A stretch of DNA of 64,000 nt from Candidatus Omnitrophota bacterium (GTDB lineage: Bacteria > Omnitrophota > Gorgyraeia > Pluralincolimonadales > Pluralincolimonadaceae), in contig PLNR01000009.1 of NCBI GenBank assembly GCA_003141835.1, positions 72,307 to 136,306 on the forward strand, in the 5' to 3' direction. Position 1 is the first letter of the stretch; each line of letters begins with the position of its first letter. This document shows positions 31,473 through 48,706 of this stretch, one piece after another. The position numbers were made by a program, and so were the translations under genes. The notes beneath the pieces were generated by a model. That model did no database searches. It worked only from the letters and a program-made list of their open reading frames with translations, and had not been told where the DNA came from.

Positions 31473-31774
31473 TAATTTGTTTCCTCTATAGTTTTAATGA
31501 TTATCCCCTCAGGCAACTGCGCCTGCAATCTGTTACCGAAATCCTCTTTCGATACCAATTCCTTCATATGGAAAACCGCTTCCTCGGACTCGCTCTCTAC
31601 GCCGAGTTTCAACGCGCGTTTAAAACTTATTTTGGGCCTGGGGCTGAATCCCTGCGATATGATGAGCGATATCTCGGCCCGGCGCGCCGCGCGCTGGAAA
31701 AGCCGGACGAGGTCGAGGTGCGATATGAACTTCATTTGGCCCGTCTTGGCGAAAATGACCCGGAGCTTATTCAA
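31472..31774 (-). CDS. Short DUF2344/TIGR03936-like protein, the usual partner of TIGR03960 radical SAM enzymes.
   Basis: KTGQMKFISHLDLVRLFQRAARRAEISLIISQGFSPRPKISF resembles the DUF2344 N-terminal consensus. It is only 100 aa. Confidence 0.6.
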   Translation of the reverse strand: MNKLRVIFAKTGQMKFISHLDLVRLFQRAARRAEISLIISQGFSPRPKISFKRALKLGVESESEEAVFHMKELVSKEDFGNRLQAQLPEGIIIKTIEETN

Positions 31775-32054
31775 CCTGGCCTTTGATAGTCTTGACGTCC
31801 TTCTTCAGGTCGGCGAGCTCCTTATGCAGCTTCGCGAGCTCGTCGAGTATCGCCATATGTTCCTTGTGCAGGGCGTCTGACGTATTCTTTACGAGAAGAT
31901 CCGTCCCCACGTATTCGCCGCGGGCGTACCGGGGCATCTTGGTGGCAGCATCGAAGTCGCTGTCCAAGCTGGAATTATCCTTACCGTTATCCTGCGCCAC
32001 CGACGGCAGTACAAATACCAGCATGAATATCAACGCAAAGAAAATCCTTTTCAC
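31767..32054 (-). CDS. Small secreted coiled-coil protein downstream of pilQ.
   Basis: Signal peptide MKRIFFALIFMLVFVLPSVAQ. C-terminal heptad-like LAKLHKELADLKKDVKTIKGQ. Confidence 0.5.
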   Translation of the reverse strand: MKRIFFALIFMLVFVLPSVAQDNGKDNSSLDSDFDAATKMPRYARGEYVGTDLLVKNTSDALHKEHMAILDELAKLHKELADLKKDVKTIKGQVE

Positions 32055-32074
32055 CGCGTCCTCCTTGTGACGTA

Positions 32075-33928
32075 CTATTTATCCAGGTAACCCCTGTTCG
32101 TGCCGCTGAACCCTTCAGCCGGCGCTACCACTGTCGCTGCGGCGGGTTTCTCTGATTTTTTATCTTCCTTCTTGTTGTTCTTCTTATTATCCTTCTTCGC
32201 GGGCTCGGGAGCGGGAACGACATTGGCCTGTCCCGCCGCGAGGGCTGACTTGACCTGCGCGATCTCCTCTGCGGTAAGCTCTCCCGGCCTTATCACCCTC
32301 GCCGTTATGAATATAAGCAGGTCTATCTTGCTGGTTTCGTTCGTCGCGCGCGAGAAGAGGTTGCCGATTATGGGGATGTCGCCCAGTATCGGTATGCCTA
32401 TCCGCCCTTTAGATTTTACGTCTTTCAATAACCCGCCTATGACGATAGTCTCGCCGTCCGCCATCAGGACCTGCGTCTCGGCCTCCCTGGTCAGAAGTAT
32501 CGGGTATTCGTTAGTACCTTTCGTATTTGTGTAAGACGAGACGACAGGATGGACTATCATATTGACGAATTTCTCGTCGCCGCTCACCTGCGGGACGACG
32601 TAAAGTTGTATGCCGACATCCTGGTAATAAGCAAGGGTTGTCGTAGCCGTAGCCTGGGCGGTGCCCGAGATATTAGATTCGATGATAGGATATTTTTGCC
32701 CTACCAGAATAAGCGCTTCCTGCCCGGAGAGCGTCACCAGCTTCGGCGCCGAGAGCGTATTGGTCCTTACGTCTTCCTCAAGCGCGTGGAGCATCGCCTC
32801 CATCTGCGTCCCGAAGATCTTCGACCATAACAGCTGGAGTCCCGCGTTATACGGGTTCAGGCCCGTGGCGAGCGGGGTAAAATTAGAGGGCTTATAAGTG
32901 ACAACGCCGCCGTTGGCCGTTACCTCTGACTGCGAATAACTGCTTCCCGTTAACAGGCCTCTCGTATCGTTACTTCCGAATTTTGTGGGAACCGTGCCGA
33001 GCAGGGCCCCGTTTGCGTCCGTCAGGAGCTGGTGGCTCTGCAGCCTTGAACCGGTGCTCCACTCCATTCCCAGGTCCCTCAACAGATCTTTACTTACTTC
33101 CATTATCCTCGCCTCAATGAGGACCTGGACCGGTTTTAGATCTATATCTTTTAATATCTTAGTGATCCTGTCGAGATATGTCGGCGTATCGGTCACCACC
33201 AGCGAATGCGACCTGGCATTCTCCCTTTCCCTCCTGGTTTTGCCTTCTTCTGTCGTCGCGGTTCCGGCTGCCGAAGCGCCCACTTTCCACCCCTTCTGTC
33301 CGGTTATCTCAAGGACCGATATCTTTCCCTGGGGAGAGAGCTGCGGCTCGAGCACCTTCTTGGCGTCCGTGGCGTCGATATACTGCAAAGTGAAGACCTT
33401 GCTGGTGATGCCCTCTATCTCGGTCAATTCCCTCTTCTTCTCCCTGCGCTCTTTCAACCCATCCACAGTCGCTACGGTGATGATATTGCCCTGGCGCTCA
33501 TACGCAAACCCGTATGTGCTAAGTATGACGTCCAGCGCCTGCTCCCATGGTACGTCCACAAGCCGTATAGTGATCGTACCGACGACTTCTTTGCCCGCGA
33601 CGATATTTACACCGCTCTTGTAAGCCAGTACCCTTAGGACATTTTGTATATCGGCATCCTTAAAATCAAGGGTCACGGTGTTATTCTTGTCTTCTTCGGC
33701 CTTCGCTTGTTCCGGGGAGATCTCCTGGGGCGCGGCTTCAAACACGGGTTGCTGCGCGGCTACCGGTGCTGTCTCAACCGGAGGCGGCAAAGCTACCGGC
33801 TGCTCAACGGTAGTAGGCGGTACGGACTGCGATTCCTGCCCGTATGCGTGCCCGAAAAATAATGCTGCAATAAACAGGACGCCGATGACCGAGATCTTTG
33901 CGCGATTGGACATGTTATTCCTCCTCAC
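32075..33928 (-). CDS. pilQ: Type IV pilus secretin PilQ.
   Basis: C-terminal secretin domain (VVTDTPTYLDRI, IVIGGL...GIPILGDIPIIGNLF). Pro/Gln-rich N-terminus and Lys-rich C-terminal tail. The start could instead be the ATG at 33913. Confidence 0.9.
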   Translation of the reverse strand: MRRNNMSNRAKISVIGVLFIAALFFGHAYGQESQSVPPTTVEQPVALPPPVETAPVAAQQPVFEAAPQEISPEQAKAEEDKNNTVTLDFKDADIQNVLRVLAYKSGVNIVAGKEVVGTITIRLVDVPWEQALDVILSTYGFAYERQGNIITVATVDGLKERREKKRELTEIEGITSKVFTLQYIDATDAKKVLEPQLSPQGKISVLEITGQKGWKVGASAAGTATTEEGKTRRERENARSHSLVVTDTPTYLDRITKILKDIDLKPVQVLIEARIMEVSKDLLRDLGMEWSTGSRLQSHQLLTDANGALLGTVPTKFGSNDTRGLLTGSSYSQSEVTANGGVVTYKPSNFTPLATGLNPYNAGLQLLWSKIFGTQMEAMLHALEEDVRTNTLSAPKLVTLSGQEALILVGQKYPIIESNISGTAQATATTTLAYYQDVGIQLYVVPQVSGDEKFVNMIVHPVVSSYTNTKGTNEYPILLTREAETQVLMADGETIVIGGLLKDVKSKGRIGIPILGDIPIIGNLFSRATNETSKIDLLIFITARVIRPGELTAEEIAQVKSALAAGQANVVPAPEPAKKDNKKNNKKEDKKSEKPAAATVVAPAEGFSGTNRGYLDK

Positions 33929-34295
33929 CTCTCAAATTTATGACTGATTCTTCGCCGCCCCTGTCGAGGATCACCCTCGTCTTCTCTATAGTCTTGACCT
34001 TGTAATCTCCCAGTATATCTCCGGCCCTCACGACCGAGCCGCCGATGATAGCGTATGAATCCCCGCTCTTCGACCAGACTATCCCCTCGAGGTTCAGCTC
34101 TACATTAGCCGTCACCGGCCTCAACTCGGGAAGCAGGTTGCCGTCCCTGTCGATGAGCGGCCTGAACGGGTCGCGCTTGTTCTTTGCGTCATATTTAAAA
34201 TTCTCATCCCCGGGCGCGAACGGCGAGAACGCGATAAAGATCAAAAGTGACAATAATACCGCGGTCCTCATTTTAGTTGTAAACCGCGTCCTCAT
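33915..34295 (-). CDS. pilP: Pilus assembly protein PilP.
   Basis: 126 aa, signal/anchor, KRDPFRPL motif, sits between pilO and pilQ. Confidence 0.8.
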   Translation of the reverse strand: MRTRFTTKMRTAVLLSLLIFIAFSPFAPGDENFKYDAKNKRDPFRPLIDRDGNLLPELRPVTANVELNLEGIVWSKSGDSYAIIGGSVVRAGDILGDYKVKTIEKTRVILDRGGEESVINLRGEEE

Positions 34296-34942
34296 TTTGA
34301 TTGTGTCTCCTCGCGCAGGACATATACCACTATCAGGAATCTCGCACTGTGGTTCTGTATGTCGTCAGGGTTGGCCTTTATGTCGAAATCGCCGACCGAC
34401 ATTATATTATCGGAGGTCTCAACGCCGTTTATGAACTCGCCTAACGCATGATAACTTCCCCTGACCTCGACCGTTACGGGTAGCTCCGTATAGATAGCGG
34501 CCGGCTTCTTAGCCTCGGTCTTAGCCCCGGGTTTCGCCGCCGGGACTGCTTTGACTACCTTAGCAGCTTCGGGCGGTTTCTGTACCGGTTCTATCTTTAT
34601 TATCTTGACCTTATTCCCGTAGGCGATCTCCGCGATCTTCTGCAGGATGTTAGGCATCTCGCGGTTCGGCGGCAGCGCTTTTTCATATTCCTTGAGTTTC
34701 CCCTGGACCGAGGCGAGGCGCGCCTCAAGCCGCGACTTGCTCGCTATGAGCGCCCGGTCTTTTTTCAGGGTTTCGCTTTCCTTTATGATCTCTTTCTTGA
34801 GTTCGCCTAACTTCCGGAAGGAAGGGATCATCGCGAACTGTATCAGGCTCAACGCTATTATGAAGCCGGCTATCCCTATCAGCACCACCTTCTCCAGGTC
34901 GGCCTTCGGCATTTTCGACATGAAATTAGAGAGTCCGGACAT
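34292..34942 (-). CDS. pilO: Pilus assembly protein PilO.
   Basis: TM helix plus coiled coil, then a PilO C-terminal domain. Positioned between pilN and pilP. Confidence 0.8.
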   Translation of the reverse strand: MSGLSNFMSKMPKADLEKVVLIGIAGFIIALSLIQFAMIPSFRKLGELKKEIIKESETLKKDRALIASKSRLEARLASVQGKLKEYEKALPPNREMPNILQKIAEIAYGNKVKIIKIEPVQKPPEAAKVVKAVPAAKPGAKTEAKKPAAIYTELPVTVEVRGSYHALGEFINGVETSDNIMSVGDFDIKANPDDIQNHSARFLIVVYVLREETQSK

Positions 34943-34945
34943 ATC

Positions 34946-35563
34946 TTATAACCCCTTCCCCTTCTTGAAATGGCAGATCACTATAAAATCCATTACCTCG
35001 GTCTTCTGCAATTTCTTGCGCTCTTCCTTGGCGATCTCGATCTCATCGAAATCGGACGAGAAAGAGGCGTTCTCTTTCAGGGAATTCACGAATTTCCCTA
35101 TCGCGGCTTCGCCGGCCTCGCTTGAGAGGATATCGGAACCCTCGATGACGAGCGTTTCCTTTAAACTTCCCGGTTCGTTCGGCGTTTCACTCTTCTTTAT
35201 GGAAAGGCTCCTCAGCCAGACCCCGGATACCAGGGAATTCGAAATGTCGTTGAGCTTCCTGCCGAGGTTGAACCTCAAGCCGGACAGCTTGTCGATCACA
35301 TCGACCTTTGAGGATATATCCCTGAGGGTATTGTCTATGTTGATCGCCTCTTTATTCGTGGCGGCGATCGACGCTATTTTTTTCTTGAGGGAATCCCTTG
35401 ATACGCTCTTCACCTGGATAAAGAACCATAACAGGACCTGTACGGCGAACAGGAGGACGACGATGCCTGCGGCGACCGGTATGACAGGCAGTGAAGGCAG
35501 CTTCATCGGCTCCCTCCTCCTGACGCGTAGATGCGGCGGTAAAAGATTTATCTCTATCATCAT
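34946..35563 (-). CDS. pilN: Pilus assembly protein PilN.
   Basis: MMIEINLLPPHLR then a TM helix. Confidence 0.85.
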   Translation of the reverse strand: MMIEINLLPPHLRVRRREPMKLPSLPVIPVAAGIVVLLFAVQVLLWFFIQVKSVSRDSLKKKIASIAATNKEAINIDNTLRDISSKVDVIDKLSGLRFNLGRKLNDISNSLVSGVWLRSLSIKKSETPNEPGSLKETLVIEGSDILSSEAGEAAIGKFVNSLKENASFSSDFDEIEIAKEERKKLQKTEVMDFIVICHFKKGKGL

Positions 35564-36490
35564 CTACCTTCTTATCGCGAGCCCGACGCAAACGGCCAAT
35601 TGGCCGGAGGCGTCCTTAAGGGCCTGCGGATCCACTTTAACGGAAACCGTGAGGTTTTTTACCGGGTCCCAGGCCGAGACCTCGAACCCGAAAGCCTGCG
35701 AGAAGCGCTGCAGCAGCGCCGTGTCTTTCGCGCCGCCGCCGCTGACGTATATCCCGTCTATACCCTTGCCGAACTGGTTCTCATAATAGTCGAACGAGAG
35801 CCTGACCTGGTTCTCGAGCGTATCCGCGTTCTTTACATCCACCGGGATATCGCGGGTAAAATTGAGCGTCTCGTTCTTGAGTATGCAGACGTTGGTCATG
35901 CTCGCGCCGATATTCAAAAGGGCGAGCGTCTTGTCCTTGCCCAACCCGGGATTGTTGAATATGAATGCGTTCGTCACGGCGATGGCGTCGCAGTCGATAG
36001 CCCCGGCCTCTAATCCCGCTTCGTTTATATATCCGAGATATTCGTCCACGAGATCTTTTTTCGAAGCCACGATGAGGACCTTCATCTTATTGCCTTCGGC
36101 GTTCTGGTCGATCACCTGGGCGTCTATATAGACCTCATTTATGTTGAACGGGATATGTTTTTCGGCCTCGAATTGCAAAGCGGATTTTAATTCGCCCTCG
36201 CTCATCTTCGGGAAGAGCACTTGGCGGACAACGACCCCCTGCCCGGATACGGACATCGTTACGTTTTGGACCTTCGTCTCCGATGAGGAGATCGCCTGCT
36301 TTATCGCCCCGACGACCTTTTCTTTCGTCTTTTCTCCCTCGATCGCCCGGACGGCGAAAAAATCGAGCTGGAACGCGCCGGCCTTTTGCCGCGACAGCGC
36401 CAATACCTTCACGGAAGAAGTGCCGATGTCGATCCCGACCTTGACCTTCGTCCTGTTAAAATTCAAAAACGGGAACTTTATCTCTTTCAT
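35564..36490 (-). CDS. pilM: Pilus assembly protein PilM (actin-like).
   Basis: VGIDIGTSSVKVLAL... Confidence 0.9.
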   Translation of the reverse strand: MKEIKFPFLNFNRTKVKVGIDIGTSSVKVLALSRQKAGAFQLDFFAVRAIEGEKTKEKVVGAIKQAISSSETKVQNVTMSVSGQGVVVRQVLFPKMSEGELKSALQFEAEKHIPFNINEVYIDAQVIDQNAEGNKMKVLIVASKKDLVDEYLGYINEAGLEAGAIDCDAIAVTNAFIFNNPGLGKDKTLALLNIGASMTNVCILKNETLNFTRDIPVDVKNADTLENQVRLSFDYYENQFGKGIDGIYVSGGGAKDTALLQRFSQAFGFEVSAWDPVKNLTVSVKVDPQALKDASGQLAVCVGLAIRR

Positions 36491-36493
36491 ATC

Positions 36494-36952
36494 CTATTCA
36501 ATCGGGGGATCGGACACGCCCGCTTTCCCCCCGCTCTTTGCCCTTATTATGCCTGTGCTGTCGGTAAAAAAATACCTGTTCCCTGTCCTGCCCGGGGTAG
36601 TCGGTTCGGCGCTCAGCTCAAAATTTTCCGGGTCGACGAACGTATAATTGAACCTGTAGCCCTGTTTCTGCTTGTTTACGGCCAGGACCGAATCGAGGTA
36701 GGGCGGATCGGAATCAGGCGCGACCAGGTTATCCAGGGCTGCCGGGAAAGTATGGGGGCTCGAATTCGTATAATAGCTGTTGCAGGCCGACCCGATCGTC
36801 CGGCACGACACTATGGCCGATGCCTCGTTCGCGTTTATGCGGGATGTAAGGAAGACAGGAATGGCAATTGCCGCCAAAGTAGCTATAATGGCGATAACTA
36901 TCATTATTTCTACGAGAGTAAAACCGTAATATGATAGTTTTTCTTCTTTCAT
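36494..36952 (-). CDS. pilA: Type IVa major pilin, paralog 1.
   Basis: Prepilin leader MKEEKLSYYG, then FTLVEIMIVIAIIATLAAIAIP (class III signal with Glu at +5). Confidence 0.9.
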   Translation of the reverse strand: MKEEKLSYYGFTLVEIMIVIAIIATLAAIAIPVFLTSRINANEASAIVSCRTIGSACNSYYTNSSPHTFPAALDNLVAPDSDPPYLDSVLAVNKQKQGYRFNYTFVDPENFELSAEPTTPGRTGNRYFFTDSTGIIRAKSGGKAGVSDPPIE

Positions 36953-36960
36953 TGGATTTT

Positions 36961-36989
36961 AGTTTATATTTTTTAAGCAAAAAAGTCAA
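36961..36989 (-). promoter_or_regulatory. Putative sigma70 promoter (TTGACT-17-TAAACT) for pilin paralog 1. It implies a leaderless or near-leaderless mRNA.
   Basis: The -10 element ends about 9 nt before the ATG at 36952 and there is no Shine-Dalgarno. Confidence 0.3.
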
Positions 36990-37086: not shown

Positions 37087-37106
37087 TTTAATTGGAGGGA
37101 TGCGAG

Positions 37107-37586
37107 ATGCGGTACAATCCGCTTAAACGCGGTTTTACTCTGATGGAAGTGATGTTCGCGGCCGGGATAATGCTCATCGCCATAGGCGGACTTTTGGGGG
37201 GATACGTTCTCTGTTTTAACCTGAGCGAGACGGCAAAGAACTTGACCTTAGCCGATAACGCTATCCAGCAGAAACTTGAAGAGATACACTACCAGATGCT
37301 CGAAACAACCACTTATTATGATAATACTACATTCGATATTCCGGGTTTCGCGCCTGGGAATGCCAAAGGCGCGATCTACGTAGACGCCATTCCCAATAGC
37401 ACGGACCTCAAAAGAGTGACTATCTCCGTCTCCTGGCGGCAAAAAAGCGGAAGGATAATCGGGTCGGATAACGGCAGCGGCGGCGGGATGGCGCTTAACG
37501 GGATACGCGACGGTACGGAGCAGGTGGACGCGAACGGTTGCCTGACATCTCCGGCGATGATCTCAGAGGTGGTGACGGACAGATGA
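37107..37586 (+). CDS. Minor pilin/pseudopilin with a prepilin-type N-terminal methylation domain (PilV-like).
   Basis: MRYNPLKRG then FTLMEVMFAAGIMLIAIGGL. The ORF-track start at 37092 is a TTG inside the Shine-Dalgarno. Confidence 0.8.
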   Translation: MRYNPLKRGFTLMEVMFAAGIMLIAIGGLLGGYVLCFNLSETAKNLTLADNAIQQKLEEIHYQMLETTTYYDNTTFDIPGFAPGNAKGAIYVDAIPNSTDLKRVTISVSWRQKSGRIIGSDNGSGGGMALNGIRDGTEQVDANGCLTSPAMISEVVTDR

Positions 37587-38182
37587 ACGCAAGATCTCGC
37601 AAAGGATTAAGCCTGGTTGAATTGATGGTAACCATAGGCATAATGGTTATAGTCGGGGGGATCCTGGCGCGTTTCCTTGTTATAGGAGGCGCGGCATGGC
37701 ATTCCGGGGACGCCGCTATACAGGCAGCCCAGGAAGCAAGAAAAGGCATAATGTACATGACAAGGGAATTACGGCAGGCCAATTTAGCCTCCCTGGCTAA
37801 TACGGCAGGCGCGAAATACGCGCAACATCCAAATACCGACTATAACTCCGTCGTCTTCCGGGTCGTGACCGTCTTTGCCGGTAACAATAATTACGGCGCC
37901 TACGGTTCCGTGATGACTAATGCCGGCGTGCCGAACTTGTCCGCTCCTATCTCTTATTACATAAATAACAACCAGCTGATAAGGCTCAAGGACAATGTCA
38001 CCAAAGTGCTTGCGAACAATGTGACCGGACTGGCGTTCCGCCTGCAAAAAGATTCTTATACGCTGAATGGCCAGGAATGCGCGGTCACGACTCTCTTGAT
38101 AACGCTGCAGACATCGAAGACCACTGCAGAGAGAAGGCAAATCCCGATGACTTTAACCAGCGCCGTCTTATTGAGGAACTAA
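37583..38182 (+). CDS. Minor pilin/pseudopilin (PilW-like).
   Basis: MNARSRKG then LSLVELMVTIGIMVIVGGIL. ATGA overlap with the upstream gene. Confidence 0.8.
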   Translation: MNARSRKGLSLVELMVTIGIMVIVGGILARFLVIGGAAWHSGDAAIQAAQEARKGIMYMTRELRQANLASLANTAGAKYAQHPNTDYNSVVFRVVTVFAGNNNYGAYGSVMTNAGVPNLSAPISYYINNNQLIRLKDNVTKVLANNVTGLAFRLQKDSYTLNGQECAVTTLLITLQTSKTTAERRQIPMTLTSAVLLRN

Positions 38183-38185
38183 AAA

Positions 38186-39508
38186 ATGGGACACAAAAAA
38201 GGGTTTATGCTGATCGTGGCTTACTCGGTAGTCGCTGTCATCCTTATCCTTGTCGCCGCTTATGTCTCCCGCAGCGTAGCCGAGGTGAGGATAGCACAAA
38301 GGGAAAAAAATTCCTTAGCGGCGCTTAAAGCGGCGGAATCAGGGATAGACTACGGCTTTGCGTGGCTGAGCCTCCAGCCTGCCCCGCCTGCAGGCGTGAC
38401 CCCTATAGTAAACCCCACGATAACCGGGGTACCGAAACCTGCCCTGACAACCGGGGCATACTCGGTAACGATCATCCCGAACGCCAGCAATCCGACAAAC
38501 TGGCCGAAAAAATACGAAATAGTGGCTGTCGGGACGTCCGGGGACTCGACCCGCACCGTATATTACGAGGTCCAGCGCGATACCTTTGCCAAGAATATCT
38601 GGTTCACGAATACCGAGAGTTACGGCGGGACGAACGTGTGGTTCGTAACGGCTGACTCGCTGGACGGCCCGGTACATACTAACGACAGCTTCAACATCTC
38701 CGGGAACCCGTCTTTCCCCGACCTGATAGATCCGCATCCGACCGAACAGTGCGGTCCGGACATAAATTACATGCACCCGGGCGTGGATAATCCGTATTTT
38801 GCCCAGCCGGTTGATTTCAACGTCGATCCTATAGTGATGCCCGGTCATGAACGTACGGAACCCCTTCGCACCGCAGCCGCGTCCGGCGGCCGCGTCTTTG
38901 CGGGAAGCACTACGATAATTTTGAACGCCGACGGCACGATGAACGTGACGAACGCGACCGGTGGTTACAATAATACCAATATGCCCATACCGGCGAACGG
39001 GGCCATATACGTCCAGAACAGGGTACAGGGGAACCACATCGCCGAATACGGCGATGTCAACGTACGAGGGACGTTGAACGGCCGCCTCACTATAGGGGCA
39101 AACGATGACGTGACTATCACGGGAAATGTCCTGTACAACAACAATCCCCAGACGAACCCAAACTCGACCGACACGCTGGGGCTCGTAGCCGAGGGGGATG
39201 TCATCATCTCGCAAAACGCGTGCCCGAACGGCGCCAATTCAAACCTTACGATCCAGGCGGCCGTAATGGCCATGGCGGATTCGTTCTACCTGGATAATTG
39301 GACCTCAACGATGAAAGGCATCTTGAACGTATACGGCGGGATAACCCAGAACCAGCGGGGGCCTGTCGGGACTTTCAATACGAATAATAACAGCAAGGCA
39401 AGCGGTTTTTCAAAAAATTATCTCTACGACAGGAGGCTGCGCGACGCGCCGCCCCCTTATTATCCGGATACTAATAGATATGAAGGGGCAGCCTGGAGGG
39501 ATCAATGA
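38186..39508 (+). CDS. PilX-like large minor-pilin / pilus tip-associated protein.
   Basis: N-terminus MGHKKGFMLIVAYSVVAVILILVAAYVSRSV is PilX_N-like and lacks Glu at +5. 440 aa, with an Asn/Thr/Gly-rich predicted beta-rich region. Confidence 0.65.
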   Translation: MGHKKGFMLIVAYSVVAVILILVAAYVSRSVAEVRIAQREKNSLAALKAAESGIDYGFAWLSLQPAPPAGVTPIVNPTITGVPKPALTTGAYSVTIIPNASNPTNWPKKYEIVAVGTSGDSTRTVYYEVQRDTFAKNIWFTNTESYGGTNVWFVTADSLDGPVHTNDSFNISGNPSFPDLIDPHPTEQCGPDINYMHPGVDNPYFAQPVDFNVDPIVMPGHERTEPLRTAAASGGRVFAGSTTIILNADGTMNVTNATGGYNNTNMPIPANGAIYVQNRVQGNHIAEYGDVNVRGTLNGRLTIGANDDVTITGNVLYNNNPQTNPNSTDTLGLVAEGDVIISQNACPNGANSNLTIQAAVMAMADSFYLDNWTSTMKGILNVYGGITQNQRGPVGTFNTNNNSKASGFSKNYLYDRRLRDAPPPYYPDTNRYEGAAWRDQ

Positions 39509-40381: not shown

Positions 40382-40389
40382 GCTATTTA

Positions 40390-40417
40390 ATCTATAACCA
40401 AAACATAAAAATGTCAA
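40390..40417 (-). promoter_or_regulatory. Putative sigma70 promoter (TTGACA-16-ATAGAT) for pilin paralog 3. It implies a leaderless mRNA.
   Basis: The -10 element ends about 9 nt before the ATG at 40381 and there is no Shine-Dalgarno. Confidence 0.3.
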
Positions 40418-40499: not shown

Positions 40500-40931
40500 T
40501 TATTCTATCGGGTTGCCCGCGGCGTTCGTCAATCTTATTACGCCCGACTCGTCAACGAAGAACACCCTCGTACCGGTTACGTTAGCCGTAACAGGCGTAG
40601 CCGTGCAGGTATACTGGTTCGCGTTTACCAAAGCGTAAACGAAACCGTAACCCTGCTTTGTACCACCGGCCAACGTCGTATCGATGTACGGAGGAGTAGC
40701 GGCGCCTAAAGCTGCCAAGGTGGCCGGATATGTAACCGGGCTCTGGGCTGCTCTGAAGCTTTCACATGCCGTGCTTATCGTACGGAGTGAACTTATCGCT
40801 GCTGCTTCGTTAGCATTGAGTCTAGCGCGTAGTAAGTTGGGTATCGCTATGGCGGCTAAAAGAGCTATAATGGCAACTACGATCATGATCTCAACGAGCG
40901 TAAAACCCTTTCTTCCTACTAGCATTCTCAT
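40500..40931 (-). CDS. pilA: Type IVa major pilin, paralog 2.
   Basis: MRMLVGRKG then FTLVEIMIVVAIIALLAAIAIP. Cys pair CESF...YTCTATP. AGGAGGGG-7nt-ATG. Confidence 0.9.
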   Translation of the reverse strand: MRMLVGRKGFTLVEIMIVVAIIALLAAIAIPNLLRARLNANEAAAISSLRTISTACESFRAAQSPVTYPATLAALGAATPPYIDTTLAGGTKQGYGFVYALVNANQYTCTATPVTANVTGTRVFFVDESGVIRLTNAAGNPIE

Positions 40932-41015: not shown

Positions 41016-42227
41016 CTATTTGCCGACGACCTGGATCAGCTTCACTATCGGCAGGAACATCGATACGACGATGCCGCCTACCACGATCCCGAGGAAAGCG
41101 ATTATAAGCGGCTCTATCAGGCTCGTCAACCCGGATACGGCCGCGTCGACTTCGCTCTCGTAAAAATCGGCGACCTTCCCGAGCATCTCCTCGAGCTTGC
41201 CTGTCTGCTCCCCCACCGAGATCATCCTCGTTACCATCGGCGGGAAGACCTTGCTTGCTGTCAGCGGCTGCGCTATCGACTCGCCTTCCTTGATGCTCAT
41301 CTTGGTCTTCAGGACCGCCGCCTCTATTACCCTGTTGCCCGAGGTCTTTCCCACTATTTCAAGCGCCGTCAATATCGAAACGCCGCTCTTCTGTAACGTC
41401 GAAAGCGTGCGCGCGAACCTCGCGATGGCCACCTTCCTTAATAACGGCCCGATAACGGGTATCTTCAACAAGAAAGTGTCGAAGGCAAGCCTTCCCTTAT
41501 CCGTCTTTATGACCTGCGAAAGCGATATGGAACCTATCACCAATCCTATAATAACGAAAAGCAGGTAGCCCCTCACGATATGGGAGATCTTTATCAGTAT
41601 AAGCGTAGGCAGAGGCAGTGTTACGCCGATGGTGGCGAATATGCTCTCGAACGTCGGGACTACTTTGACTATCAGGAAAGTCGTGATAAGGATCGCCATC
41701 GTAACAACGACCGCCGGATATATGAGGCTCGATTTTACTTTCCTTATCAGGGCGATCGTCTTTTCCATGTAGATGGCGACCCTGTCGAGGATCTCATCAA
41801 GGTTGCCGCTCGACTCGCCTGCCCTGACCATGTTTATGAAGAAAGGAGAAAATACATTCGGCTGTTTGCCCAGCGCCTCGGAGAGGCTCAGCCCTCCCTC
41901 GACATTATCGCGGACCCTCTTTACGACGTTCTTGAAACCCTTGCTCTCCATCTGATCCTGGAGCGCGTCAAGGGCGCCGACGAGCGGTATGCCGGCGTCG
42001 ACCATCGTGGCGAGCTGCCTGGAGAAGACGACCAGGTCATCCATTTTTACCTTCCCGCCGCCTCCGAAGGACAGCCCCTTGGCCGTTTCCTTCGCCTCGC
42101 TCAGCGAAATTATCACGTATTCCTTCTGCCTGAGCATGTCTACCAGGGCGATGCTGCTGGGCGCTTCCATGGTGCCGGATATCGTCCTGCCGTCCTTATC
42201 CTTCGCGGTATATTTGAATTGGGGCAC
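41016..42227 (-). CDS. pilC: Type IV pilus platform protein PilC (GspF family).
   Basis: MPQFKYTAKDKDGRTISGTMEAPS, two T2SSF domains, three TM helices. Confidence 0.9.
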   Translation of the reverse strand: MPQFKYTAKDKDGRTISGTMEAPSSIALVDMLRQKEYVIISLSEAKETAKGLSFGGGGKVKMDDLVVFSRQLATMVDAGIPLVGALDALQDQMESKGFKNVVKRVRDNVEGGLSLSEALGKQPNVFSPFFINMVRAGESSGNLDEILDRVAIYMEKTIALIRKVKSSLIYPAVVVTMAILITTFLIVKVVPTFESIFATIGVTLPLPTLILIKISHIVRGYLLFVIIGLVIGSISLSQVIKTDKGRLAFDTFLLKIPVIGPLLRKVAIARFARTLSTLQKSGVSILTALEIVGKTSGNRVIEAAVLKTKMSIKEGESIAQPLTASKVFPPMVTRMISVGEQTGKLEEMLGKVADFYESEVDAAVSGLTSLIEPLIIAFLGIVVGGIVVSMFLPIVKLIQVVGK

Positions 42228-42228: not shown

Positions 42229-43938
42229 TTATTCCTCCGACGTTACCCTTAAGACTTCCTCTATGGTGGTATGGCCCAAAGCCAGGTTCTCGAGCGCGGC
42301 CGCGCGCAGGGTGAGCATCCCCTTCTCTTTCACGCAATATTCTTTTATCTTATCGCTCTGCACCCTGTCAAGTATCATCTCTTTTATCTTGTCGTCTACG
42401 GTGAGGTTCTCGAGGATGGCGAACCTGCCGTAATACCCCGTATTATTGCATTTGGCGCACCCTTTTCCCTTAAAGAAGGCCGCTTTCTCCTTTTCCTTAT
42501 ATCCTATTTTGTCCAGTATCTCCTTTGGGATGACGATCTTCTCTTTGCAATTCGCGCATACCCTCTTCATCAACCTCTGCGCGCATATAAATACCACGCT
42601 GGACGCTACCAAAAACGGCTCGACGCCCATGTCTATAAGCCTTGTTATGGCGCTCGGCGCGTCGTTCGTGTGCAGGGTCGAAAGGAGTAATTGTCCGGTG
42701 AGCGACGCCTTGATAGCTATATCCGCGGTCTCGAAATCGCGGATCTCGCCGACCATGACGATATCCGGCGCCTGGCGCAGGAAAGCGCGCAGGCCGCCCG
42801 CAAAGGTAAGGCCTATCTCCGGCTTGACCTGAACCTGGGTTATCCCCATGAGCTCGTATTCGATCGGGTCCTCTATCGTGACGATATTCTTTTCCGGCGT
42901 ATTCAATATATTAAGGATGGAATAAAGGGTCGTGGACTTGCCGCTCCCGGTCGGCCCGGTCACAAGGAACATCCCGTAAGGCCTGGAGATCGCCTCCCTT
43001 AATTCCTCCAGGGTCTTGGGGAGGAAGCCGAGTTTTTCCGGGGAAACTTTAATGCTCGATTTATCGAGGACCCTCAGGACGACCTTCTCGCCGTGGACCA
43101 GAGGCAGGGTTGAAACGCGGAAATCTATCTCCCTCTCCTCCATCCTCACCTTGAACCTGCCGTCCTGCGGGAGGCGCCATTCGGTGATATCCATGTCCGA
43201 CATTATCTTGATCCTGGTAAGCACCGCGTTCTGGTTCGATTTCGGCAGGTGCGAGAATTCCGTAAGCGCGCCGTCGATACGGTAGCGTATGCGCAAGTCT
43301 GTCTCCATGGGTTCCACATGGATGTCGGAGGCGCGGCGTTTGAGCGCCTCGCTTATTATGACGTCGACCATCTTGAGTATCGGCGCCTTCTGGCTCTCTA
43401 TGGCCAGCGTGGAAACATCGAACCGTTCCGCATCCCCGGTCTGGAGGAGTTCCAGTTCGTCGTCCTTGACGTCTTTTACTATCTTATCTATGGAAAGCGT
43501 CTCTTCCCCGTAATAGGCCGCGATCGAGGCGATGATATCCTTATCCGTAGCTATGACCGGGTCTATCTCGTATTTAGTCAGGATCTTCAGGTCATCGAGG
43601 GCGAATATGTCGAGCGGATCGGACATGGCCACGGTCATGCGGTTGCCGATCTTCGAAACCGGGATAAGATGGTAAAGGCGCGCGATCTTCACTGGGACAA
43701 GGGAGATGATCTCCTTGTCTATCTTGTATTTCGCCAGGTTTATCGGAGTTATGTTGAGTTCCTGGCTGAATATCGATAAAAGCTCGTTCTCATTGACGAG
43801 CCCCTTCTGCACAAGGATCTTGCTCAGGCTGCCGCCCTTCTCTTTCTGGGTCTTTATGGCCTCGTCCAGTTTCTCCCTGGATATGGAGCCTTTATTCACC
43901 AGGACTTCGGCTAATTTATCTCTTATGCTCTGTGCCAT
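42229..43938 (-). CDS. pilB: GspE/PilB-family pilus assembly ATPase, paralog 3, with an MshEN-type N-domain.
   Basis: Walker A GPTGSGKSTT. CANC...CAKC. N-terminal KLAEVLVNKGSISREKLDEAIKTQKE is an MshEN motif. Confidence 0.9.
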   Translation of the reverse strand: MAQSIRDKLAEVLVNKGSISREKLDEAIKTQKEKGGSLSKILVQKGLVNENELLSIFSQELNITPINLAKYKIDKEIISLVPVKIARLYHLIPVSKIGNRMTVAMSDPLDIFALDDLKILTKYEIDPVIATDKDIIASIAAYYGEETLSIDKIVKDVKDDELELLQTGDAERFDVSTLAIESQKAPILKMVDVIISEALKRRASDIHVEPMETDLRIRYRIDGALTEFSHLPKSNQNAVLTRIKIMSDMDITEWRLPQDGRFKVRMEEREIDFRVSTLPLVHGEKVVLRVLDKSSIKVSPEKLGFLPKTLEELREAISRPYGMFLVTGPTGSGKSTTLYSILNILNTPEKNIVTIEDPIEYELMGITQVQVKPEIGLTFAGGLRAFLRQAPDIVMVGEIRDFETADIAIKASLTGQLLLSTLHTNDAPSAITRLIDMGVEPFLVASSVVFICAQRLMKRVCANCKEKIVIPKEILDKIGYKEKEKAAFFKGKGCAKCNNTGYYGRFAILENLTVDDKIKEMILDRVQSDKIKEYCVKEKGMLTLRAAALENLALGHTTIEEVLRVTSEE

Positions 43939-43941
43939 AAT

Positions 43942-45645
43942 TTAATCCTGCTCCCCGAGGGTCACGCGCACCACCTCTTCAAGGGTCGTGGTCCCGTCAA
44001 AAACCTTCCTCAAGCCGCTCTCCCTTAAAGTCACGAGTCCGGCCCTGCGCGCCGCTTCGTAGACGACGGACTCGTGCGCCCTCTTGGCTATAAGCTCCCT
44101 CAGCTCCGGGTTTATAGCTACCGCCTCTATAAGGCCTATCCTTCCCCTGAAGCCGGTCTTGAAACAATGGTCGCAGCCTTTGCCCTTGTAGAACTTCACG
44201 TTCTCAGGCGCCTTTATCTTAAGTTTTTCGAGCAATGACTTGTGTATTTCCTGGACCTCTTTGCAGCGCGGGCAGATCTTCCTGACAAGCCGCTGGGCAG
44301 CTACAAGGACCACCGAAGAACTGATAAGGAACGGCTCGACTCCCATATTCATCAGCCTCATTATGACGCCGGTCGCCGTGTTGGTATGCAGCGTGCTGAG
44401 CACGAGGTGCCCGGTCAGCGCGGCTTTTATCGCGATGTCGACGGTCTCCAGGTCCCTTATCTCGCCGACCATTATGACGTTAGGATCCTGCCGCAGTATG
44501 GAGCGCAGCGTCGCCGCGTACGTCAACCCGATATTTGTATTTATATTGACCTGGTTTATCCCCGGCAGCAGGTATTCGACGGGATCTTCTACGGTGACGA
44601 AATTCTTTTCCGGCGCGTCTATATGCTTGATGACCGAATACAGGGTCGTCGTCTTCCCTGAACCTGCAGGGCCGCAGACGAGTATCATACCGTGGGGCCT
44701 CCTCGAGGCCTTCTTTAATTCATCGAGGGGTTCCTTCTCGAACCCCAGCCTGTCGACATCGAGCATGGCCTGGGACCTGTCGAGGATCCTGAGCGCTACC
44801 TTTTCGCCGAACGCGGTCGGGACGGTCGAGACCCTGAAGTCGACCTCCCTCTCCTGCACCTTTATCTTGAACCTTCCGTCCTGGGGCAGGCGCCGCTCGG
44901 CGATATTGAGGTTCGACATGACCTTGATCCTGGATATTATGCCCGACTGTATCGTCCTCGGCAGCGATTGCGCCTCCCTGAATATCCCGTCGATCTTATA
45001 CCTGATGCGCAGGTGGTCTTCCATCGGTTCTATGAGGATATCGCTCGCCCTCGCTTTCGTCGCTTCCAGGACTATAGCGCTAGTGAGTTTTACAACCGGC
45101 GTATCGGCTACCGCGCCCAGCACCTCGATCGACTCATCTTCCGGTCTCCTGGAAGAGATGAGCTCTATGTTAGTCTCTTTTACCAGCGCTTCGATGGTCG
45201 AGGTCGCCGCGGTCCCGTAATGCTGGTCTATCGCGGCCTTGACGTCGTCCTGCGTGGTTATGATAGGCGTGATGTCCATGCCGGTGACGTTCTTTATGTC
45301 GTCAAGGGCGAAGACATTAAGCGGGTCTGCCATCGCGACGGTGAGGATGTTGCCCATCTTCGATATAGGCATGATCTGGTAATTGACGGCTATCTTTTTC
45401 GGGATGAACTTGGTTATTTCCGGGTCTATCTTGAACTTGGAAAGGGATATCGGCGGGATGCCGAGTTCCTGGCTTACGATCGCAAGTAATTCCCTCTGCG
45501 TTATCGCGCCCAGGGAGACAAGGATATCTCCCAGCGAACCGCCCTTCTCTTTCTGGGCTTGAAGGGCCTGGTTCAATTTCTCTTCGGTGATCGCCCCTTT
45601 TTTTAACAGTATCTCGCTTAGCCGTTCCTTGATCCCAGATGGCAT
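43942..45645 (-). CDS. pilB: GspE/PilB-family pilus assembly ATPase, paralog 4, with an MshEN-type N-domain.
   Basis: GPAGSGKTTT. CPRC...CDHC. N-terminal RLSEILLKKGAITEEKLNQALQAQKE. Confidence 0.9.
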   Translation of the reverse strand: MPSGIKERLSEILLKKGAITEEKLNQALQAQKEKGGSLGDILVSLGAITQRELLAIVSQELGIPPISLSKFKIDPEITKFIPKKIAVNYQIMPISKMGNILTVAMADPLNVFALDDIKNVTGMDITPIITTQDDVKAAIDQHYGTAATSTIEALVKETNIELISSRRPEDESIEVLGAVADTPVVKLTSAIVLEATKARASDILIEPMEDHLRIRYKIDGIFREAQSLPRTIQSGIISRIKVMSNLNIAERRLPQDGRFKIKVQEREVDFRVSTVPTAFGEKVALRILDRSQAMLDVDRLGFEKEPLDELKKASRRPHGMILVCGPAGSGKTTTLYSVIKHIDAPEKNFVTVEDPVEYLLPGINQVNINTNIGLTYAATLRSILRQDPNVIMVGEIRDLETVDIAIKAALTGHLVLSTLHTNTATGVIMRLMNMGVEPFLISSSVVLVAAQRLVRKICPRCKEVQEIHKSLLEKLKIKAPENVKFYKGKGCDHCFKTGFRGRIGLIEAVAINPELRELIAKRAHESVVYEAARRAGLVTLRESGLRKVFDGTTTLEEVVRVTLGEQD

Positions 45646-45661
45646 CGGCTGTCAGGGTCTC

Positions 45662-46108
45662 CTATTTTTTGTAGAACTTATCGATCGCCTGCTTTATGTC
45701 TGTCGCGGTAGAAACGAATATCTGTATCGAACAGCCTGTCACCATCTCTATGTCCTCGACCGCCTGGATGTTCAGCGGGTCGGCCATCGCGATGGTCACG
45801 GTATTGCCGATCTTATCTATCGGTATGAGGCAATACTGGCGCGCGACGTTCTCCGGCACCATCTTTATCGCCGACTCGTCCATCTCGTAATTGGCAAGCG
45901 GCAGGTACGGGAAACCGTACTGGACCGTGATGGCTTGGGCAATTTGCTCCTCAGTTACATATCCGAGCCCAGCCAGGATCTGGCCCAAAAGCCCGCCCTT
46001 CTCCTTCTGGATCTTCAGGGCCTCGTCGAGATGCGCCTGTTTTATCACGCCTTTTTCCAGGAGGAGCTGTCCGATCGTTTTAGTTATTACGCGCTTTACC
46101 GACGCCAT
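45662..46108 (-). CDS. Stand-alone GSPII_E N-terminal (MshEN-like) domain protein, a putative c-di-GMP receptor.
   Basis: 148 aa. KTIGQLLLEKGVIKQAHLDEALKIQKE matches the MshEN c-di-GMP-binding motif. There is no ATPase domain. Confidence 0.75.
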   Translation of the reverse strand: MASVKRVITKTIGQLLLEKGVIKQAHLDEALKIQKEKGGLLGQILAGLGYVTEEQIAQAITVQYGFPYLPLANYEMDESAIKMVPENVARQYCLIPIDKIGNTVTIAMADPLNIQAVEDIEMVTGCSIQIFVSTATDIKQAIDKFYKK

Positions 46109-46114
46109 ATGGCC

Positions 46115-47182
46115 CTATTTCCTGAATAACCTGTCAAGATCGTCCGGATCAGTGCTGCGAAGTATCGCGTCCTCGTAACTTATCAATTTCTTGTTGTAGA
46201 GCTCGAATAGGGTCTGGTTCATCGTCCTCATGCCCTCTTTCTGGCTCGTCTGTATCACCGAATATAATTGGTGCGTCTTCGCCTCGCGCACCAGGCTCCT
46301 AACCGCCGGGGTAGCGATCAATACCTCGGTCGCCAGTACCCTGCCGTGGCCGCTGGCCTTGGGTATGAGCTGCTGGGCGAGGATCCCCAGGAGCACAAAT
46401 GAAAGCTGTATCCTGACCTGCTGCTGCTGGTGGGAAGGAAATACGTCTATGACCCTGTTTATCGTCTGGACCGCGTCAGAGGTATGGAGCGTCGAAAGTA
46501 CGAGATGGCCCGTCTCTGCGATATCCAGGGCGGCCTCGATCGTCTCGAGGTCGCGCATTTCACCGATGAGTATGACATTCGGGTCCTGCCTTAATACATG
46601 TTTCAAGGATTGCGCGAATGACTGCGTATCCGACCCGACCTCGCGCTGGTCGACCAGCGCTTTCTTGTTCTTGTGGACATACTCGATCGGGTCCTCCACG
46701 ATCACTATGTGGCAATTCTTCTCCGAGTTTATCTTGTCAACCATCGAGGCGAGCGTCGTGGACTTGCCGCTTCCGGTGGCTCCCGTGACAAGGACCAGCC
46801 CTTTGGGCCTTTTGCACAGGTCCTCTACGACATTGAGCGGGAGGCCGCACTCCTCGAAACTCATTATGTGGAGCGGAAGCAGCCTTACCGCCGCGCTGAC
46901 ATAACCTCTCTGGAGGAAGACATTGACCCTGAAACGCCCGAGCCCTTCTATGCCGAACGAGACATCAAGCTCAAGTTCCCGCTCGAACTTCTCTATATGC
47001 TGGGGCTTGAGCATGCTGTAAGCCAGCCTCTTGGTGTCCTCGGCCGCGAGGGTGCCGAATTCGGTCGGCACTAATTGCTCGTCTATCCTAAGCAGGGGCG
47101 GGGCAAATACGGAAATATGCAGGTCGGACGCCCCTTTCTGGACCATCAGTTTAAGCAGTGTCTCTATCTGGACATTCACCAT
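46115..47182 (-). CDS. pilT: Twitching motility retraction ATPase PilT.
   Basis: MVNVQIETLLKLMVQKGASDLHISV...VTGATGSGKSTTLASMVD...GEMRDLETIE. Confidence 0.95.
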   Translation of the reverse strand: MVNVQIETLLKLMVQKGASDLHISVFAPPLLRIDEQLVPTEFGTLAAEDTKRLAYSMLKPQHIEKFERELELDVSFGIEGLGRFRVNVFLQRGYVSAAVRLLPLHIMSFEECGLPLNVVEDLCKRPKGLVLVTGATGSGKSTTLASMVDKINSEKNCHIVIVEDPIEYVHKNKKALVDQREVGSDTQSFAQSLKHVLRQDPNVILIGEMRDLETIEAALDIAETGHLVLSTLHTSDAVQTINRVIDVFPSHQQQQVRIQLSFVLLGILAQQLIPKASGHGRVLATEVLIATPAVRSLVREAKTHQLYSVIQTSQKEGMRTMNQTLFELYNKKLISYEDAILRSTDPDDLDRLFRK

Positions 47183-47198
47183 GGGACCTCCTTAAGGA

Positions 47199-48638
47199 TT
47201 AAGAGACTATCGTATTCTTTCCCTTTGCTTTCGCTTCGTTCAGGGCTGAATTCGCTTTTTTTATCAGGTCTTCGGCGGCCACGCCGTCTATCGGGTTCTC
47301 GCTCACGCCGCCGCTTACGGTCACGAAGTTGCGCGGATAACCTTTGCCGCCGGTGATGCCGAAAGCCTCTACGCGCTGCTTGAGGACTTCAGCCGCCGTA
47401 TTCCCCTGTTTCTTGTTCTTCTCCGGCAGTATCACGGCGAACGTATCTCCGCTCAATCTGCCGACCCTGTCAACCTCGGTAATGTTGGATTCTATTATCT
47501 TGCCGATCTTTTTTATGGTATCTTCGGCCGCCAACTCCCCGTTTATGTCCCTGTATAAATTGAGGTCGTCGATATTAAAAAGCAAAAACGAGCACGGCCG
47601 CTGGTACAGCACGGCGCGCTTAATCTCTTCCTCGAGACGGGACATGATGAATTTCTCGTTATAGAGGCCGGTGAGTTCGTCCTTGATGGCCAGTTCCTTT
47701 GCCTTGGCCGTCAATAATTCGTTCTCAACGGCTATGGCCGTCTGTTTCGCGAAAAGTTTTATAAGTTCAGCGTCCTCTTCCTTGAACTCATAATCCGGCG
47801 CCGTATTGCATAACCCTATTACCCCGAAGCCGCGCCCGTGCGCGACAATGGGAGAAAGGAGGCAATTCGTTACGCTGAAGACCTTCCGGAATTCCTCGAT
47901 GTCCGGCGTAATGCGCGACCGCCTGTCTATGGTGGCCATCTTGTTATCGGCGACGAGTTTTCCGAGGAGCCCCGTGCCTATCTTGATCCGGAACGAATTC
48001 AGGCTGCCGCTCAGGTTCTCGCTCTCTTTCATCACGAGGGTATTCTTCTCCTCGGTAAGCATCACGAACGCGGACGAATCTTCCTCGACTTGGCTGATCT
48101 TGCCGATGGTTATCTTAAGTATCTCCTCGAGCGAAGCTCCCTGCGAGATGAGATTGCTGACCTGAAGGAGGCTCGACATGATAAGGACCTTCTTGTTGAT
48201 CTCTACGTTTATCTCTTTGGTCCTCTCGCCGTAGGAACGCAGTTCGTCCATGTTCTCGCGTATACGGCGGGTGAGCACGTTAAGGGTGGTGCCGAGCTCT
48301 CCCACCTCGTCCTCGGTCTTGACATCTATGCTCCTCGAGAAATCGCCGTTAGCGATGCCCTTGGCCCTGGCAGCCATATCGATTATCGGCGAGGCGATGT
48401 CCCAGATGATCTTGAAGCCGAGCACGGCGATGAGCATGGTTATACCTATGATCAGCGAGACGTTTTTCGTCGTGAAATCCAAGTCGATATTCGGCTGGAG
48501 GAACGGGAAATAAATGAAATTGTAAGCGAGATAGACACAGATGGCAAGCGGTATGAAGGACATCAACACGAAAACAACGGTTAGCTTATAACGGAGACCG
48601 GCGGGTATAAGCGACAGTTTCTTGATTATTCCTGCCAT
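47199..48638 (-). CDS. Membrane sensor protein with TM, HAMP, GAF and a degenerate GGDEF domain (SGDTF in place of GG[DE]EF).
   Basis: Two TM helices and a HAMP-like segment. A GAF-like region. The C-terminal GGDEF fold (LTGLYNEKF...RLSGDTFAVILPE) has a degenerate active site and no RxxD I-site. The likely start is the ATG at 48638, after a GGGAGA Shine-Dalgarno. Confidence 0.75.
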   Translation of the reverse strand: MAGIIKKLSLIPAGLRYKLTVVFVLMSFIPLAICVYLAYNFIYFPFLQPNIDLDFTTKNVSLIIGITMLIAVLGFKIIWDIASPIIDMAARAKGIANGDFSRSIDVKTEDEVGELGTTLNVLTRRIRENMDELRSYGERTKEINVEINKKVLIMSSLLQVSNLISQGASLEEILKITIGKISQVEEDSSAFVMLTEEKNTLVMKESENLSGSLNSFRIKIGTGLLGKLVADNKMATIDRRSRITPDIEEFRKVFSVTNCLLSPIVAHGRGFGVIGLCNTAPDYEFKEEDAELIKLFAKQTAIAVENELLTAKAKELAIKDELTGLYNEKFIMSRLEEEIKRAVLYQRPCSFLLFNIDDLNLYRDINGELAAEDTIKKIGKIIESNITEVDRVGRLSGDTFAVILPEKNKKQGNTAAEVLKQRVEAFGITGGKGYPRNFVTVSGGVSENPIDGVAAEDLIKKANSALNEAKAKGKNTIVS

Positions 48639-48671
48639 CTTTATCATCTCCCTTCGTAATTTATTATAAAA

Positions 48672-48700
48672 AGTATACCTGTTCCTAAATTAGGTGTCAA
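48672..48700 (-). promoter_or_regulatory. Sigma70 promoter (TTGACA-17-TATACT) upstream of the sensor-pilT-mshEN-pilB-pilB-pilC gene string.
   Basis: Read directly from the sequence. It is followed by a GGGAGA Shine-Dalgarno. Confidence 0.5.
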
Positions 48701-48706
48701 ACATAA

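Follow-up and report, generated by a model that had tools for sequence, protein, structure and literature searches.

The stretch of 64,000 nucleotides analysed here comes from the Candidatus Omnitrophota contig PLNR01000009.1 (assembly GCA_003141835.1); we refer to it as the window and use its positions as coordinates below. Genes were identified from a listing of open reading frames (ORFs) together with Pfam and NCBIfam profile scans. The window contains a type IVa pilus (T4aP) gene set approximately 17 kb long (31767–48706), located between a B12-binding radical SAM gene of family TIGR03960 (rSAM) and a gene encoding a DUF2344 protein of only 100 amino acids. We show below that this placement of the pilus cluster is a phylum-level gene-order trait, and that its most stable element is not the whole 17-kb block but the junction at one end, where the pilus secretin gene, usually a small ORF that we call orf95, the short DUF2344 gene and the ribonuclease gene rng follow one another. 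The region is described in the direction of the minus strand, with the rSAM gene on the left.

The pilus genes begin with a membrane sensor that has HAMP, GAF and GGDEF domains in Pfam (47199–48647, −). Its GGDEF domain scores 106 bits, but the active-site motif reads SGDTF and the RxxD motif of the I-site reads TEVD. By these motifs the sensor is degenerate at both sites and does not count as an active diguanylate cyclase. It is followed by the retraction ATPase gene pilT (46115–47182, −; TIGR01420, 479 bits against a cutoff of 319) and by a gene for a stand-alone MshEN protein of 148 amino acids (45662–46108, −). The latter matches PF05157 at 75.5 bits and the cyclic di-GMP (c-di-GMP) motif NF053729 at 60.5 bits against a cutoff of 38, and is a candidate c-di-GMP receptor. 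Next come two pilB paralogs (43942–45645 and 42229–43938, both −). They score 642 and 654 bits on TIGR02538, slightly below the equivalog cutoff of 675.65; both have the full-length T2SSE plus MshEN architecture, with MshEN at the N-terminus, and they are 50% identical to each other. The platform protein gene pilC (41016–42227, −) encodes two T2SSF domains and scores approximately 410–420 bits on the PilC and GspF models.

Two pilin genes lie beyond pilC (40500–40931 and 39947–40417, both −), each above the cutoff on N_methyl/TIGR02532. They are followed by a divergent operon of four minor-pilin genes (37092–39930, +), encoding proteins of 164, 214, 440 and 141 amino acids, of which the first two contain N_methyl and the third DUF4900. 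A third pilin gene (36494–36952, −; N_methyl/TIGR02532) heads the pilMNOPQ string, which consists of pilM (35564–36490, −; PilM_2), pilN (34946–35563, −), pilO (34292–34942, −; PilO), pilP (33915–34295, −) and the secretin gene pilQ (32075–33928, −; STN, Secretin_N and Secretin domains). pilN and pilP gave no match to any profile hidden Markov model (HMM), and were assigned from their position and their conservation in relatives. Five proteins in the window carry the N_methyl/TIGR02532 prepilin motif. The components by which a T4aP is recognised, namely the PilB and PilT ATPases, the PilC platform, PilMNOP and the PilQ secretin, are thus all present. The prepilin peptidase PilD was not seen among the genes annotated in the 64-kb window. 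A first-pass annotation had listed these pilus genes between rSAM and DUF2344, including a sensor with a degenerate GGDEF domain, and the profiles bear out its list almost item by item; every gene that it listed is there, but it made no mention of orf95 between pilQ and DUF2344.

The minor-pilin operon is only 28–60% identical in relatives, compared to 80–94% for pilB, pilT and pilC. It evolves much faster than its neighbours, and no other part of the pilus locus is unusual in composition. Approximately 38 kb away from this locus are two further PilB/GspE-type ATPase genes in tandem (405–3849, −); their products, of 577 and 569 amino acids, contain MshEN domains and are 42–45% identical to the two PilB proteins described above. 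LarC-like (3843–5036) and LarB/AIRC-like (5033–5782) genes adjoin this pair. The window as a whole therefore encodes four PilB-like ATPases and one stand-alone MshEN protein.

The small gene orf95 (31767–32054, −) encodes a secreted protein of 95 amino acids, with a signal peptide and a C-terminal coiled coil, which matches no Pfam or NCBIfam family. It is preceded by a ribosome-binding site (GGAGG) and starts with GTG. It is conserved in six lineages, with a ratio of nonsynonymous to synonymous substitution rates (dN/dS) of 0.30; in the related loci, which are denoted L followed by a number, the other copies are at 9706–10008 (L021), 9707–9997 (L022), 9723–10004 (L026), 9714–9992 (L029) and 7351–7635 (L033). 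Where present, it is always found between the secretin and the short DUF2344, and its coiled coil has the motif LHxEN…L…L…I. The protein may be a secretin-associated periplasmic factor. The start of the DUF2344 gene (31472–31774, −) overlaps the stop of orf95 by 8 nucleotides, and its own stop overlaps by 1 nucleotide the start of rng (29979–31472, −), which encodes a ribonuclease of the RNase E/G family (TIGR00757, 504 bits).

On the left of the pilus genes, the rSAM gene (48707–50341, −) scores 674 bits on TIGR03960 against a cutoff of 462. It encodes the domains Radical_SAM_N2 (PF19864) and Radical_SAM (PF04055), and its CxxxCxxC cluster motif is CRRACNFC; the score, the cluster motif and the N-terminal Radical_SAM_N2 domain together place it in the family. 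Upstream of it is a conserved cell-shape cluster, which starts with mreB (54490–55566, −; NF010539, 537 bits) and continues with mreC (53705–54484, −; PF04085), mreD (53178–53708, −; assigned by position), mrdA/PBP2 (51444–53168, −; Transpeptidase and PBP_dimer) and rodA (50341–51447, −; FTSW_RODA_SPOVE).

On the right, rng is followed by genes for an FMN reductase (29386–29979, −) and a Macro-domain protein (28865–29386, −), both identified with Pfam, and only then by rplU (27235–27549, −), rpmA (26986–27225, −) and obg (25996–26964, −). The two ribosomal protein genes were recognised from their translations and from L21 and L27 Pfam matches on the L021 orthologs, and obg from its translation and Obg Pfam domains. 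The flanks given in the first-pass annotation are therefore correct for mreBCD-mrdA-rodA-rSAM and for DUF2344-rng, but rng does not directly precede rplU. The FMN reductase and Macro genes are absent from this position in L022, L026, L029 and L035, and in L021 the Macro gene is present there and the FMN reductase gene is not. Between rplU and the Macro gene is a low-GC patch (27600–28850; GC 0.447 compared to approximately 0.54, tetranucleotide z of approximately 3), which contains ORFs for a 104-residue membrane zinc-ribbon protein (27905–28219) and a 193-residue secreted protein (28235–28816), neither of which matches a family. Together with the FMN reductase and Macro genes this patch makes up an insert between rng and rplU that is specific to the lineage; in L022, L026, L028, L029 and L035 there is no gene between these two.

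We then compared gene order by searching the rSAM protein against one genome per species, which gave 20 loci, and mapping the window proteins onto them. The close loci (rSAM 73–93% identical) all come from Candidatus Omnitrophota metagenome-assembled genomes, two of which carry the label “uncultured Planctomycetia”. Eleven assemblies in this range (L001–L010 and L015) keep the left-hand order of the window as far as their contigs reach, that is, mreC-mreD-mrdA-rodA-rSAM-GGDEF-pilT-MshEN-pilB-pilB-pilC-pilin-pilin, followed by the reversed minor pilins. A further Omnitrophota locus, L016, with rSAM 46% identical, has rodA-rSAM and then a GGDEF-type gene, and so shows the start of the order only.

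The two genes are arranged differently elsewhere. In Clostridia, rSAM is followed directly by a DUF2344 gene encoding approximately 220 amino acids, and the Zixibacteria locus encodes an 899-residue fusion of rSAM with DUF2344. Altogether rSAM and DUF2344 are adjacent or fused in L012–L014, L017, L018, L020 and L032, compared to a separation of 16.9 kb in the window. Clustered at 50% identity, the DUF2344 family has 8,521 representatives with E ≤ 1e-3; of the 150 best of these, 103 are 200–319 residues long, 10 are fusions of at least 700 residues, and 22 are shorter than 140 residues. The expectation that the two genes sit side by side in other bacteria was therefore well founded. Because they are adjacent or fused outside the phylum and share an order within it, the split is a trait of the lineage and not of a single genome: having the pilus genes inside this cluster is a phylum-level feature of gene order. 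Relatives have the same pilus genes in this position, and the DUF2344 that they encode is short as well.

For the opposite end of the block we examined the neighbourhoods of nine homologs of the short DUF2344, 47–92% identical to the window protein, which with the window make ten lineages (the window, L021, L022, L024, L026, L028, L029, L033, L034 and L035). In all ten, the short DUF2344 gene has the secretin immediately upstream, apart from the small ORF where this is present, and rng immediately downstream; L034 is a contig of 1.1 kb on which the downstream ORF is cut and unannotated, and rng is assumed there. On contigs that extend further, rplU-rpmA-obg-proB-proA-nadD usually come after rng, with L024 as an exception and rpmA not called in L028 and L035.

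Three layouts can be distinguished upstream of this junction. The window, L021, L026 and L033 have the full pilus cluster leading to pilQ-orf-DUF2344. L024, L028 and L035 have pilMNOPQ-DUF2344 without the small ORF, and in L024 and L028 rSAM is not nearby. L022 and L029 have the order PilZ-unknown-rSAM-secretin-orf-DUF2344-rng with no pilMNOP nearby, so that no genes other than the secretin and the small ORF lie between rSAM and the short DUF2344. The secretins in L022 and L029 are 49–51% identical to the window PilQ, compared to 51–52% for PilQ proteins within pilMNOPQ operons; being as similar as these, they represent the same gene as pilQ. It is thus the secretin-(orf95)-short DUF2344-rng junction that is the most stable element of the arrangement.

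In L022 (5166–6288) and L029 (5150–6213), a PilZ-domain protein and a protein of 200–247 residues without family precede rSAM, in the place of rodA; the PilZ gene is a second link of this neighbourhood to c-di-GMP. A few kb upstream of rSAM, L022 also encodes (1–3024) a predicted surface protein of approximately 2,478 residues with Peptidase_S8, LTD, cadherin-like and Big domains, which recalls the very long ORFs reported for Omnitrophota.

The 100-residue protein scores above the cutoffs of both models of its family (TIGR03936, 124.6 bits against 71.9; PF10105, 120.7 bits against 23.8), in agreement with its original assignment, but covers only positions 1–97 of 209 in TIGR03936 and 1–96 of 176 in PF10105, corresponding to the N-terminal half of the profile. 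Pfam places DUF2344 in one group with the pseudouridine-synthase domain, which is described as a tandem duplication with little sequence similarity between its halves (PMC7955657). The AlphaFold2 prediction for the short protein alone is confident (predicted local distance difference test, pLDDT, 89.5; predicted template modelling score, pTM, 0.80), and shows a β-α-β-β-α-β unit. Its best PDB matches are to one part of TruA and Pus1, with template modelling scores (TM-scores) of 0.63–0.72 normalised to the query. A sequence search of the PDB with the half protein found nothing significant. The model of a full-length relative, P0126 (pLDDT 95.5), matches Pus3, Pus10, TruA, TruB and Cbf5, with 57 matches at E ≤ 1e-3 and a best E of 1.3e-7.

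The models therefore predict full-length DUF2344 to have a two-part fold resembling that of pseudouridine synthases, and the Omnitrophota form to consist of the first part only. The full-length model is similar to these enzymes (TruA, Pus1, Pus3, Pus10, TruB and Cbf5) at E of 1e-7 and a TM-score of approximately 0.6, but the sequence identity is only approximately 10%, and the likeness is one of fold. The enzymes are themselves two-part proteins, whereas the Omnitrophota protein has one part and so cannot form the usual cleft on its own. An RluA-type pseudouridine synthase gene (S4 and PseudoU_synth_2; 58201–59415, −) is located a few kb upstream of mreB, so that the genome encodes conventional pseudouridine synthases besides the DUF2344 protein.

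Several accounts of the missing second part were tried and rejected. An HMM built on the C-terminal half recognises all full-length homologs, yet has no match in the 64-kb window or in any Omnitrophota locus examined, which rejects a split gene with the C-terminal half nearby. It does not match orf95, which has a signal peptide and a coiled coil and is therefore not a displaced C-terminal half. An internal sequence duplication was also rejected, since an HMM built from one half had no significant second match in 103 full-length proteins, and hhalign of the N- against the C-terminal halves gave a probability of 1.6%. Any kinship between the two parts of DUF2344 is thus structural only, which is consistent with the Pfam description of halves that share little similarity (PMC7955657).

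From the third pilin gene onwards, through pilMNOPQ, orf95, DUF2344, rng and the FMN reductase gene to the Macro gene, neighbours either overlap or are no more than 20 nucleotides apart, and a consensus scan found no terminator-like site on the minus strand between pilQ and rng. The same type of scan located a promoter-like site, TTGACA-17-TATACT (48672–48700, −; 11 of 12 consensus positions), in the 59-nucleotide gap between rSAM and the GGDEF gene, and further promoter-like sites upstream of the pilin genes. All of these promoter and terminator calls are consensus matches only, and are not evidence of function.

We consider it likely that the T4aP cluster is an old and vertically inherited part of the mreBCD-mrdA-rodA-rSAM-DUF2344-rng-rplU-rpmA-obg neighbourhood, and that the short DUF2344 is a working protein whose gene is coupled with the pil genes. 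The pilus cluster would have entered, or been assembled, between rSAM and DUF2344 early in the history of the phylum, and would have been kept there since. The data show the gene content, the old and vertically inherited order, the short form with purifying selection on it, and the fold; co-transcription, the direction and timing of the rearrangement, and a role connected with RNA are what we infer from them. From their spacing and the scans, pilMNOPQ, orf95, DUF2344 and rng are most likely co-transcribed and translationally coupled. The right-hand junction may then persist because DUF2344 and rng owe their expression to read-through from the pil genes and to translational coupling with them, in which case breaking it would cut both genes off from the signals for their expression. 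The left-hand part, GGDEF-pilT-MshEN-pilB-pilB-pilC-pilins, appears to be a separate unit that starts at the promoter-like site after rSAM. It is probably responsive to c-di-GMP, as suggested by the MshEN motifs in both PilB proteins and in the stand-alone protein, the degenerate GGDEF domain, and the PilZ gene in L022 and L029. The short DUF2344 probably still works with rSAM in trans, on a substrate linked to RNA or the ribosome, as judged from the fold and the gene neighbourhood.

A number of observations weigh against this explanation. The basis for co-transcription is gene spacing and consensus scans. The full T4aP insert may have come first, or equally the minimal rSAM-secretin-orf-DUF2344 arrangement of L022 and L029 may have preceded it. 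The search for the C-terminal part covers the 64-kb window and the related loci. In L032, a short DUF2344 (102 residues, 44% identical) comes right after mrdA-rodA-rSAM, with no pilus genes and no rng, so that shortening and splitting are separable events. Finally, the stability of the secretin-DUF2344 junction could mean that there is a functional link rather than operon inertia.

This last possibility can be put as an explanation in its own right, in which the short DUF2344 of Omnitrophota, together with rng, has come to work with the secretin or pilus machinery, and selection for the link holds the junction together; an example would be the coupling of RNA processing or pilus-gene expression to envelope assembly. 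It would account for the presence of secretin-short DUF2344-rng in ten lineages out of ten, even without an adjacent pilMNOP (L022 and L029) or a nearby rSAM (L024 and L028), and for the association, in almost every case, of the new neighbourhood with loss of the C-terminal part. However, DUF2344 and rng are also neighbours outside the pilus context: L031 has a full-length DUF2344 (235 residues, 51% identical) followed by rng-rplU-rpmA. L032 conversely has the short form without pilus genes. The short protein lacks a signal peptide and retains the residues of a family associated with rSAM, and rSAM itself is still present in these genomes. No known mechanism ties a pseudouridine-synthase-like domain to a secretin. 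We therefore regard recruitment as unlikely. A more far-reaching proposal is that the single-part DUF2344 has been locked in an operon with the pilus secretin and RNase G throughout the history of the phylum, that self-pairing or docking to rSAM in trans might rebuild an RNA-binding cleft, and that the unit might co-regulate envelope or pilus assembly with RNA or ribosome maturation in very small, possibly host-dependent cells. This is a doubtful, speculative proposal.

By contrast, it is very improbable that the 100-residue protein is a truncated pseudogene remnant left behind by an insertion, as the first-pass annotation had supposed. It does cover less than half of TIGR03936 and lies 17 kb from its usual partner. 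However, at least 120 homologs were found, 58–92% identical to it; all those listed are 87–120 residues long, and the named ones are Omnitrophota, so that the length stays at approximately 100 residues across more than 100 homologs, even where identity falls to 58%. The gene has intact start and stop codons and is most likely translationally coupled to its neighbours, and the comparison with L021 gave a dN/dS of 0.20, indicating purifying selection, alongside 0.19 for pilQ and 0.04 for rng. The predicted fold stands confidently by itself, and there is no C-terminal half in the window or the related loci of which the protein could be the remainder. An alignment of 48 short sequences has 19 invariant columns. 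In 60 aligned full-length proteins, the first 90 residues contain every column that is invariant and the majority of those that are nearly so, so that nearly all of the invariant residues of the family lie in the retained part; the Omnitrophota protein has kept the conserved core and shed the variable second part. The short DUF2344 is a conserved, independently folding form, and not a decayed gene.

Less probable again is a recently acquired pilus island that interrupts the rSAM-DUF2344 pair in this genome. The 17 kb do form a self-contained functional module, and the minor-pilin and pilin block at 36–41 kb is compositionally odd, with a tetranucleotide z of approximately 3, as is the low-GC patch at 27–29 kb outside the region. 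However, GC is flat across the pilus region and similar to the flanks, and tetranucleotide distances are ordinary over pilB, pilT, pilC and pilMNOPQ. The scan for island borders found no tRNA or tmRNA genes; there was no match to Rfam families, and the family profile scans gave no match to integrases among the genes of the region. No flanking repeats were found, the repeats present being paralogous segments (MshEN N-termini, pilin N-termini and Walker A regions). An integrative genomic island was therefore rejected on the basis of native composition, the absence of tRNA or repeat borders, and an order that is not patchy among relatives: the same insert in the same order occurs in 11 independent Omnitrophota assemblies, and the DUF2344-rng junction is kept down to 47% DUF2344 identity. 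This agrees with the earlier view, based on GC content, that the arrangement is old or lineage-specific. A chimeric contig that joins a pilus locus to housekeeping genes, although the source is probably a metagenome-assembled genome and this type of assembly is prone to chimeras, has a negligible chance of being the explanation, because both junctions recur in many independent assemblies (NCBI, JGI, ENA and Logan) with tight, in-frame gene boundaries.

The pilus locus is in itself ordinary. T4aP genes are reported from 135 of 141 Velamenicoccia, which is nearly all of them, and from the majority of genomes in the other Omnitrophota classes (Seymour et al. 2023, Nat Microbiol, PMC10066038), and those clusters contain the same set of PilB, PilT, PilC, PilMNOPQ and pilins as the window. 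That study highlights the co-location of T4aP genes with type 2/3 F-type ATPases. A secretin, PilQ and synteny are not mentioned in its text, and it describes neither the position of the pilus genes between rSAM and DUF2344 nor the secretin-DUF2344-rng junction.

As to the surrounding gene order, mre-rodA … rplU-rpmA-obg is a conserved neighbourhood in Firmicutes and other bacteria. The window shares with it mreB-mreC-mreD-mrdA-rodA on one side and rplU-rpmA-obg-proB-proA-nadD on the other, and differs in being broken by 17 kb of pilus genes and, between rng and rplU, by the FMN reductase gene, the Macro gene and the low-GC patch. In comparison with the TIGR03960 and TIGR03936/DUF2344 pair of Clostridia and Zixibacteria, the window proteins are likewise above the curated cutoffs, but their genes, although on the same strand, are separated by 17 kb, are probably in different transcription units, and encode only the N-terminal half of DUF2344. 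A literature search found no functional study of DUF2344, TIGR03960 or TIGR03936. The single-part DUF2344 and the phylum-wide secretin-DUF2344-rng junction appear to be undescribed so far, and both are modest findings.

The secretin-(orf95)-short DUF2344-rng junction provides a clean synteny marker for an uncultivated phylum, which may be useful for checking Omnitrophota bins and for establishing the order of rearrangements in this phylum. For the DUF2344 family, the results indicate that the N-terminal 100 residues are the conserved core and that physical linkage to rSAM is dispensable. The pseudouridine-synthase-like fold, taken together with the rng, rplU, rpmA and obg neighbourhood, points to an RNA or ribosome substrate for the rSAM/DUF2344 pair.

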